Below are positions 16,350 through 17,248 of a stretch of DNA of 64,000 nucleotides, piece by piece. How positions within the stretch are numbered: the stretch's first letter is position 1; every line of letters begins with the position of its first letter. The notes below the pieces were generated by a model. It was not told the DNA's origin, searched no databases, and was given only the letters and a program-made list of their open reading frames with translations. A program made the position numbers and the translations under genes. This stretch comes from Escherichia coli (lineage in GTDB: Bacteria > Pseudomonadota > Gammaproteobacteria > Enterobacterales > Enterobacteriaceae), in NCBI RefSeq assembly GCF_003334785.1, contig NZ_QOWV01000004.1. One strand, given 5' to 3'.

Positions 16350-16377
16350 ATTGTTTAAAGCCCCCACGTCCATTAAT

Positions 16378-16391
16378 AATGCATTTGCATT
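16378..16391. promoter_or_regulatory. palindromic operator-like site in the prlF promoter
   Basis: aatgcatttgcatt palindrome about 60 bp upstream of the prlF start. Confidence 0.4.
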
Positions 16392-16448
16392 ACCTTAGTT
16401 CAAGCTTATAATTTGAGCAGAAAACAGGCTGTAAAAGGACAGTGAATC

Positions 16449-16784
16449 ATGCCCGCTAATGCTCGCTCTCACGCTGTACTGACCACTGAATCAAAGGTCA
16501 CGATACGCGGACAAACAACTATCCCCGCGCCAGTGCGTGAGGCCTTAAAACTGAAGCCAGGCCAGGACAGCATTCATTACGAAATTCTGCCTGGTGGGCA
16601 AGTATTTATGTGCCGACTGGGAGATGAACAGGAGGATCATACTATGAATGCATTTTTGCGTTTTCTGGATGCAGATATCCAGAACAACCCGCAAAAAACT
16701 CGTCCATTCAACATTCAACAAGGAAAGAAACTTGTCGCTGGCATGGACGTCAACATTGATGATGAGATTGGCGACGACGAATAA
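16449..16784 (+). CDS. prlF: antitoxin PrlF (SohA), AbrB/SpoVT-type DNA-binding fold
   Basis: 111-aa ORF MPANARSHAVLTTESKVTIRGQTTIP with acidic C-terminus; overlaps the next ORF by 1 nt. Confidence 0.9.
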   Translation: MPANARSHAVLTTESKVTIRGQTTIPAPVREALKLKPGQDSIHYEILPGGQVFMCRLGDEQEDHTMNAFLRFLDADIQNNPQKTRPFNIQQGKKLVAGMDVNIDDEIGDDE

Positions 16785-17248
16785 TGGATTTTCCACAAAG
16801 GGTTAATGGTTGGGCGCTATATGCTCATCCCTGTTTTCAGGAAACCTACGACGCTTTAGTTGCCGAAGTCGAGACATTAAAGGGAAAAGATCCTGAAAAT
16901 TATCAGAGAAAAGCCGCCACAAAGTTATTGGCGGTAGTCCATAAAGTGATTGAGGAGCATATCACGGTCAATCCATCATCACCGGCATTCCGTCATGGCA
17001 AGTCGTTAGGCTCTGGGAAAAATAAAGACTGGTCACGGGTAAAATTTGGTGCTGGTCGTTATCGTCTCTTCTTTCGTTATAGTGAAAAAGAGAAAGTCAT
17101 CATTCTGGGATGGATGAACGATGAAAACACTCTGCGCACCTACGGTAAAAAAACAGATGCCTATACCGTATTCAGCAAAATGTTAAAAAGAGGACATCCT
17201 CCTGCCGACTGGGAAACCCTCACCCGAGAAACAGAAGAAACCCATTGA
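16784..17248 (+). CDS. yhaV: toxin YhaV (ribosome-dependent ribonuclease)
   Basis: 154-aa ORF translationally coupled to prlF (ATGA overlap). Confidence 0.9.
   Translation: MDFPQRVNGWALYAHPCFQETYDALVAEVETLKGKDPENYQRKAATKLLAVVHKVIEEHITVNPSSPAFRHGKSLGSGKNKDWSRVKFGAGRYRLFFRYSEKEKVIILGWMNDENTLRTYGKKTDAYTVFSKMLKRGHPPADWETLTRETEETH

Follow-up and report, generated by a model that had tools for sequence, protein, structure and literature searches.

The prlF-yhaV operon occupies positions 16449-17248 of the window (the whole stretch of 64,000 nt of Escherichia coli DNA that was analysed) and is flanked by garD and agaR. The antitoxin and autorepressor gene prlF (sohA; 16449-16784, plus strand, 111 aa), assigned from the list of open reading frames (ORFs), PF15937, NF007429, and RefSeq, is followed by yhaV (16784-17248, plus strand, 154 aa), which the ORF list, PF11663, and an AlphaFold2 model point out as the gene of a RelE-superfamily ribonuclease toxin; the sizes and coordinates of both ORFs are exactly those given in an earlier note on this DNA. 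The two genes have a single nucleotide in common, A16784, as that note had stated, while its label ATGA for the overlap had to be replaced, the junction gacgaaTAATGgat reading TAATG (stop TAA, start ATG). A putative Shine-Dalgarno-like sequence AAGGA (16435-16439, plus strand) is placed 9 nt ahead of the prlF ATG. The small bicistronic operon with the antitoxin gene first and a 1-nt overlap has the layout of type II toxin-antitoxin modules, and the antitoxin-toxin order is kept in all related loci with intact yhaV. Another promoter-like site ahead of yhaV (16756-16785) matched 9/12 consensus positions and was discarded as a chance occurrence, since a count of 3 such sites compares with a chance expectation of 1.7 ± 1.4.

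Several E. coli chromosomes match the stretch 16300-17320 with 100% identity, and 5135 of the 5426 complete E. coli genomes carry it at a coverage of at least 80%. RefSeq labels on the matching stretch are garD, prlF, yhaV, and agaR, and together with the Pfam and NCBIfam matches given below they bear out the proposed PrlF-YhaV type II pair. The Rfam search of positions 15800-17800 at a permissive E-value returned no match and thus no known small RNA or riboswitch overlapping the module, and neither PrlF nor YhaV was matched by the PADLOC defence models.

The left border of the module is formed by the intrinsic terminator hairpin of garD (16323-16348, plus strand), a gene which ends at 16300. 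This hairpin was called in the terminator scan and consists of a 10-bp stem (AAAACATGGC/GCCATGTTTT), a 6-nt loop, and a T-run, with a folding energy of -12.4 kcal/mol (z -3.6) that was equalled by 0 of 200 shuffles. On the right side agaR (17303-18112, minus strand; ORF list and RefSeq) is convergent to prlF-yhaV, as had been claimed, and the 54-nt spacer between yhaV and agaR contains a GC-rich hairpin at 17260-17296, in which ATGCCCGC (17260-17267) is paired with GCGGGCAT (17289-17296) to give an 8-bp stem with a 21-nt loop. The hairpin had been described as a bidirectional one in which the module ends; its presence is confirmed, while the role of bidirectional terminator is unsupported, because the defining U-tract is missing. 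An intrinsic terminator combines a GC-rich stem and a short loop with a U-run directly after, and here no T-run follows on either strand (tails CCUUUCUC on the plus and UGUGAACACC on the minus strand), nor was the hairpin called in the consensus terminator scan. It is still conceivable, and on balance rather doubtful, that this element acts as a bidirectional intrinsic terminator of both yhaV and agaR transcription: the position in a convergent spacer, the stability of the stem (-21.2 kcal/mol on the plus and -25.0 on the minus strand; z-scores -2.3 and -2.7, respectively), and its retention in E. albertii and divergent E. coli would fit such a role, but the loop is long, the substitutions found in relatives are non-compensatory, one of them breaks the closing pair, and Pseudocitrobacter has a canonical hairpin in the same position instead.

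The assignment of PrlF is based on the match to Pfam PF15937 (PrlF_antitoxin; E 7.2e-42, residues 14-110) and on the full-length match to the NCBIfam equivalog NF007429, which exceeded the curated threshold (170 bits versus cutoff 125, residues 1-111). Residues 15-39 gave, in addition, a weaker match to MazE_antitoxin PF04014 (E 0.0023) and reached 27.1 bits with the AbrB-family domain TIGR01439, just below its cutoff of 28.3. The PDB profile search with 11 PrlF homologues returned AbrB-family regulators only, at non-significant E-values of about 0.5, and the AbrB/MazE-type swapped-hairpin fold is assigned to PrlF in the literature (PMC5408214). When the PDB was searched by sequence for PrlF and YhaV, no true relatives came up, a match to ThreeFoil (E 0.0023) being a short repeat artefact, and the PDB copy searched contained no solved structure of PrlF or YhaV.

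YhaV matches Pfam PF11663 (Toxin_YhaV; E 8.9e-54, residues 12-150). Its AlphaFold2 model, built on an alignment of 64 sequences from a search of 1.84 billion proteins (980 matches, E up to 0.001), had a pLDDT of 95.7 and a pTM of 0.90. The best 42 Foldseek matches of this model in the PDB were all RelE, HigB, HigB2, YoeB, ParE, or PfiAT toxins or their complexes, which confirms that YhaV belongs to the RelE superfamily at the fold level. The top match was PfiAT 9w3a (E 1.8e-4), and with E. coli RelE 4fxe the target-normalised TM-score was 0.77, the range across the 42 matches being 0.39-0.77. Conserved basic residues of the catalytic type are present, since R118 is invariant in the 64-sequence alignment and R85, K87, and R94 are shared by 90% or more of its sequences. 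In published work YhaV is a RelE-superfamily RNase whose activity is abolished by replacement of two conserved arginines (PMC5408214); it causes reversible bacteriostasis (PMC11838884), its toxicity is neutralised by PrlF (PMC5408214; PMC11838884), and PrlF is linked to Lon protease (PMC5408214).

Within codons 86-91 of prlF lie two tandem copies of the 7-bp unit ATTCAAC (16706-16719, plus strand), a slippage hotspot known from laboratory mutations. The list of PrlF homologues includes many variants of 118-151 aa, set apart from one another by FNIQHST units or frameshifted tails. At the DNA level one E. coli lineage (L022) has n=10 with operator and yhaV intact, and n=30 was found in a Shigella sonnei pseudogene (L021), where insertion sequences truncate the 5' end of prlF and the 3' end of yhaV. 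Among 5156 natural complete E. coli genomes 18 (about 0.35%) deviate from n=2, all with n=3-12: n=3 was found in 11 genomes and n=4, 5, 6, 7, 9, 11, and 12 in one each, and 14 of these 18 expanded alleles are out of frame. Copy number was taken from the record span of BLAST hits, the coverage threshold being unusable because BLAST pieces overlap inside the repeat. In the nine n=3 genomes examined in detail RefSeq annotates prlF as a frameshifted pseudogene without exception (9/9), and yhaV is intact in 8/9. The n=3 genomes belong to at least three flanking haplotypes (0-8 versus 44-50 differences per 3.4 kb), which indicates a recurrent origin of this allele, the classical prlF1-type 7-bp duplication.

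According to published experiments, the 7-bp prlF duplication was fixed in a compensatory-evolution line (PMC12107188), and in an evolution experiment with 95 drugs the same duplication was present in every prlF-mutant line, where it raised prlF-yhaV expression, lowered ompF, and conferred resistance to carbenicillin, aztreonam, and D-valine (PMC7686311). The presence of this laboratory resistance duplication in natural isolates makes the heptamer tract a matter of practical interest; the hotspot was already known in the laboratory, and its natural distribution is a small addition of the present analysis. The partial literature search, which is not proof of absence, found no published VNTR/MLVA locus matching the prlF heptamer. 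The tract has the behaviour of a mutational hotspot, not that of a proven phase-variation locus, and it seems improbable that it serves as a natural contingency switch beyond this. Such a switch would be in keeping with the 18 natural genomes with n=3-12, the 14 out-of-frame alleles among them, the spread of n=3 over at least three haplotypes, and the intact yhaV in 8/9 of the n=3 genomes. In it, out-of-frame slippage, whether to n=3 or to another copy number, starting from n=2, would replace the acidic C-terminus of PrlF, as a result of which, judging from laboratory strains, prlF-yhaV would be derepressed, ompF lowered, and tolerance to beta-lactams and proteotoxic stress gained, and reverse slippage would restore wild-type prlF. 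The expanded heptamers may well be rare slippage alleles, mildly deleterious or neutral, like the dead 30-copy gene of S. sonnei.

Upstream of prlF the consensus scan identified a sigma-70-type promoter (16384-16412, plus strand) with -35 TTTGCA (16384-16389) and -10 TATAAT (16407-16412), which are separated by a 17-nt spacer and match 10/12 consensus positions, and transcription probably starts at about 16419-16420. The promoter palindrome aatgcatttgcatt of the earlier note was found at 16378-16391 as described, with 6-nt arms; it is an imperfect palindrome, the tt in the middle not being complementary to itself, and each arm is to be lengthened to 7 nt. The better description is therefore a 7-2-7 inverted repeat, TAATGCA-tt-TGCATTA, at 16377-16392, the right arm of which coincides with the -35, given the position of the latter. 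The core AATGCA-N2-TGCATT has a single occurrence in the 64-kb window, and the 16-mer TAATGCAWTTGCATTA gave one exact match per strand orientation; operator-like matches with up to 3 mismatches at 3014 and 26429 are at chance level. Of 5000 dinucleotide shuffles made from 16349-16448, 273 (5.5%) contained an inverted repeat whose arms were 7 nt or longer and whose spacer did not exceed 6 nt, so that the repeat by itself is weak, marginally non-random evidence. According to a review which cites Schmidt 2007, PrlF2-YhaV4 binds a palindrome in the prlF promoter, after which a dimer of hexamers is formed (PMC7781912), and control of the prlF-yhaV operon by PrlF is reported elsewhere (PMC5408214). 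The published operator most probably is exactly the 16-mer at 16377-16392, which we regard as the site of PrlF or PrlF-YhaV.

The decisive evidence for the operator is comparative and not that of repeat statistics. The scan of one genome per species yielded 19 loci, 17 of them from Enterobacterales (Escherichia species, Pseudocitrobacter, Enterobacter, Cedecea davisae, and eight Photorhabdus species). Conservation of the palindrome, which the earlier note had named as a check, holds: the strict core AATGCA-N2-TGCATT is present upstream of prlF in 16/17 Enterobacterales loci, in Escherichia, Pseudocitrobacter, Enterobacter, Cedecea, and Photorhabdus alike, the relaxed pattern, which allows left-arm changes, in 17/17, and the arms recur on three distant plasmids. 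In the intact loci of this set the centre of the relaxed motif lies 52-73 nt ahead of the prlF ATG, the exception being a decayed E. coli allele without the prlF start codon. In the alignment of 12 promoters the columns ATG-A-TTGCATTA are invariant at a mean column identity of 51%. The longest word common to the 200 nt upstream of the E. coli gene and the Photorhabdus, Cedecea, or Enterobacter sequences always lies inside 16378-16394, and for P. luminescens and P. asymbiotica it reaches 16 nt, while shuffles gave no more than 11-12. In Cedecea the palindrome is perfect over 20 nt, GGTAATGCAATTGCATTACC. The reading of the element as a direct repeat (TGCATT twice) was rejected, being broken in Cedecea, Enterobacter, Phaeobacter, and Bradyrhizobium, which keep or perfect the inverted repeat.

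Outside the 17 loci, plasmids encoding YhaV at 43-53% identity were examined, and the operator arms were found on those of Pantoea, Phaeobacter, and Bradyrhizobium, where the flanks do not align: the Pantoea agglomerans plasmid carries them twice in tandem, and in Phaeobacter inhibens and Bradyrhizobium there is one copy each, situated just past a separate TTGACA -35. The dyad thus co-occurs with the module in gamma- and alpha-proteobacteria. Its centre may be TT, AT, AA, or CT, but neither the arms nor the 2-nt spacing change, which is the signature of a symmetric-dimer site. The left arm AATGCA varies slightly, with ATGTA in some Photorhabdus and ATACA in the decayed E. coli allele. On the Novosphingobium and Acetobacter plasmids a different palindrome, GTAAGG...CCTTAC, occupies the same place, and the plasmid copies of E. 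fergusonii and Citrobacter lack any inverted repeat with arms of 6 nt or more. The sister clade's palindrome provides a ready-made natural specificity swap for the study of DNA recognition by AbrB-type antitoxins; the conservation of the operator from E. coli to alpha-proteobacterial plasmids is of modest added value.

Since the right half of the repeat also serves as the -35, the conservation could in part stem from promoter function instead of repressor binding, a confound that the left arm AATGCA alone escapes. It is nevertheless very unlikely that the conserved 16-mer is promoter architecture only, or the site of another regulator such as CpxR, in place of a PrlF-YhaV operator. The invariant right half TTGCATTA does include the -35, and prlF is reported to be repressed in a CpxR-dependent manner (PMC9600279), but the left arm, situated upstream of the -35, stays exactly reverse-complementary to the right one across genera whose promoters cannot otherwise be aligned. 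Moreover, in Phaeobacter and Bradyrhizobium the arms follow a separate TTGACA and thus are not the -35 in those plasmids, the motif accompanies prlF-yhaV into unrelated chromosomal and plasmid contexts as is the case for a cognate operator, and the binding of the complex to the promoter palindrome described in the review (PMC7781912) also speaks against it. The reading of the repeat as a likely autorepression site, put forward in the earlier note, is accordingly supported in silico by a dyad which overlaps the -35 and co-occurs with the module, and in this respect the sequence has the autoregulatory operator that would be expected of a type II module.

Taken together, the locus is with a probability of roughly 0.93 the chromosomal E. 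coli prlF-yhaV type II toxin-antitoxin operon with autorepression at a promoter operator. It can hardly be a decaying non-functional remnant, despite the insertion sequences disrupting the S. sonnei locus, the truncated locus in E. coli SCPM-O-B-8794, the deletion beside IS1 in EC23HZZ201, and the split yhaV matches in several Photorhabdus loci, because here both ORFs are full length and identical to widely conserved alleles, promoter, operator, and Shine-Dalgarno-like sequence are intact, and function in K-12-type strains is published (PMC7781912, PMC5408214, PMC7686311).

The mechanism proposed for this autoregulated operon is the usual one of type II modules and combines the gene identities, folds, operator anatomy, and operator conservation established in the present analysis with DNA binding, the PrlF2-YhaV4 stoichiometry, toxicity, and the PrlF-Lon link as taken from the literature. 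The single sigma-70 promoter would give a bicistronic prlF-yhaV mRNA, from which prlF would be translated first, with yhaV translation probably coupled to it via the TAATG stop/start overlap. The antitoxin PrlF, presumably a dimer in which the N-terminal domain is AbrB/MazE-like and the C-terminus acidic, would sequester the RelE-fold ribonuclease YhaV, and the PrlF-YhaV complex would occupy the dyad-symmetric operator and, because the right arm is the -35 hexamer, shut out RNA polymerase, resulting in negative autoregulation. When PrlF is depleted, for which the general type II model suggests proteolysis as the route, the operon would be derepressed and free YhaV would cleave mRNA, leading to reversible growth arrest.

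Among known systems MazE-MazF resembles the module on the antitoxin side. The PrlF N-terminus matches PF04014 and TIGR01439, both with weak scores, and each of the two antitoxins represses its own operon via palindromic promoter sites (PMC5408214). The partner toxin of PrlF, however, has the predicted RelE fold and not the MazF/CcdB fold, and a PrlF2-YhaV4 stoichiometry is given for the complex in the review (PMC7781912).

On the toxin side the likeness is to RelBE, HigBA, and YoeB-YefM: the YhaV model superposes on RelE, HigB, HigB2, and YoeB, and cleavage of mRNA by YhaV reportedly depends on translation (PMC7781912). In comparison with RelE-type toxins YhaV is about 60 residues longer and, according to the model, has additional N-terminal helices; with the solved toxins of the superfamily it has a sequence identity of only 8-17%. 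Unlike the antitoxins of RelBE and HigBA, which are RelB of the ribbon-helix-helix type and HigA of the helix-turn-helix type, that of YhaV is AbrB-like.

Heptanucleotide repeats serve as contingency tracts in the Haemophilus HMW adhesin genes. The prlF tract is similar to such simple-sequence tracts in that the number of 7-bp tandem copies varies between isolates and shifts the frame, but in the wild type there are no more than two copies, and other copy numbers are rare.

The closest system is the module itself as known from E. coli K-12, PrlF(SohA)-YhaV, which is said to have been described by Schmidt et al. 2007 (J Mol Biol 372:894). The system found here is thus an already known one, and its detection is a correct re-identification of the module characterised in 2007. 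Going by reviews, the experiments suggested in the earlier note on binding of the promoter palindrome and on the toxicity of yhaV alone appear to be published already. Locus, neighbours garD and agaR, protein families, and the palindromic promoter operator are the same, there is no substantive difference, and the copy described here has the wild-type two-copy heptamer and not the three-copy prlF1 allele.

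Comparison of the prlF-yhaV module with related loci bears on the edges of the segment that moves. In Escherichia sp. MOD1-EC7003 (comparison locus L003, positions 1-70) prlF is 96% identical and the operator is the same, the upstream context is different and garD, the left neighbour of the module in the window, is lacking. This locus becomes similar to the window no earlier than about 5-10 nt before the operator palindrome TAATGCA-tt-TGCATTA (window 16377-16392), by which the mobile unit would have the operator as its left boundary. In a Pseudocitrobacter MAG (L006) the 940-bp module is flanked on both sides by 33-nt direct repeats (2873-2905 and 3813-3845; 88% identical) that contain the garD terminator hairpin, and this bracketing suggests either insertion of the module at the terminator or duplication of the terminator; in E. 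coli the left copy of the repeat is the only one (window 16323-16348).

At the garD site two alleles are decayed or missing. In E. coli SCPM-O-B-8794 (L008:2950-3280) prlF is a divergent remnant with 66% amino-acid identity and no start codon, the left operator arm is mutated to CCATACA, yhaV is absent, and rsmI adjoins the remnant. E. coli EC23HZZ201 (L020) carries IS1 with a deletion reaching yraI. Elsewhere the toxin gene is apparently damaged with prlF and the operator retained, namely in the Photorhabdus loci L009, L015 and L016, in L005 and in L041: in Enterobacter sp. BIGb0383 (L005), as in several of the Photorhabdus loci, the tblastn matches to yhaV are split or frameshifted, and in E. 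coli PSS-15 (L041) yhaV is interrupted by an IS66 element.

No solved structure of YhaV (encoded at window 16784-17248), PrlF (16449-16784) or a close relative was found by sequence search of a 2026 PDB copy; the predicted YhaV model is of high confidence and RelE-like, with extra N-terminal helices. A weak promoter-like site at the 3' end of prlF, immediately ahead of the yhaV start (16756-16785; TTGATG, 18-nt spacer, AATAAT; 9 of 12 positions), is at chance level for the promoter scan.

In distant relatives the arms AATGCA-N2-TGCATT are kept on Pantoea, Phaeobacter and Bradyrhizobium plasmids, Pantoea having two tandem copies, whereas Novosphingobium pCAR3 and Acetobacter plasmids possess a differing palindrome, GTAAGG...CCTTAC, at the same position (regions compared: L026:200-330, L029:218-347, L032:212-341, and the sequence ahead of prlF in L027 and L028). 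Within the PrlF family, operator specificity thus seems to have been swapped in nature.

Inside prlF lies a heptanucleotide tract, (ATTCAAC)n, with n=2 in the window (16706-16719); the loci compared for it are L021, L022 and L033-L043. The copy number is n=3 in 11 of 5156 complete E. coli genomes, and n=4, 5, 6, 7, 9, 11 and 12 occur in one genome each; n=10 is seen in L022:1757-1828 and n=30 in a Shigella sonnei locus disrupted by IS (L021:1655-1866). The n=3 allele, labelled in RefSeq as a frameshifted pseudogene, lies on at least three flanking haplotypes and is also present in PSS-15, the strain with IS66-interrupted yhaV. It is the prlF1-type 7-bp duplication, which is recurrent in laboratory evolution.
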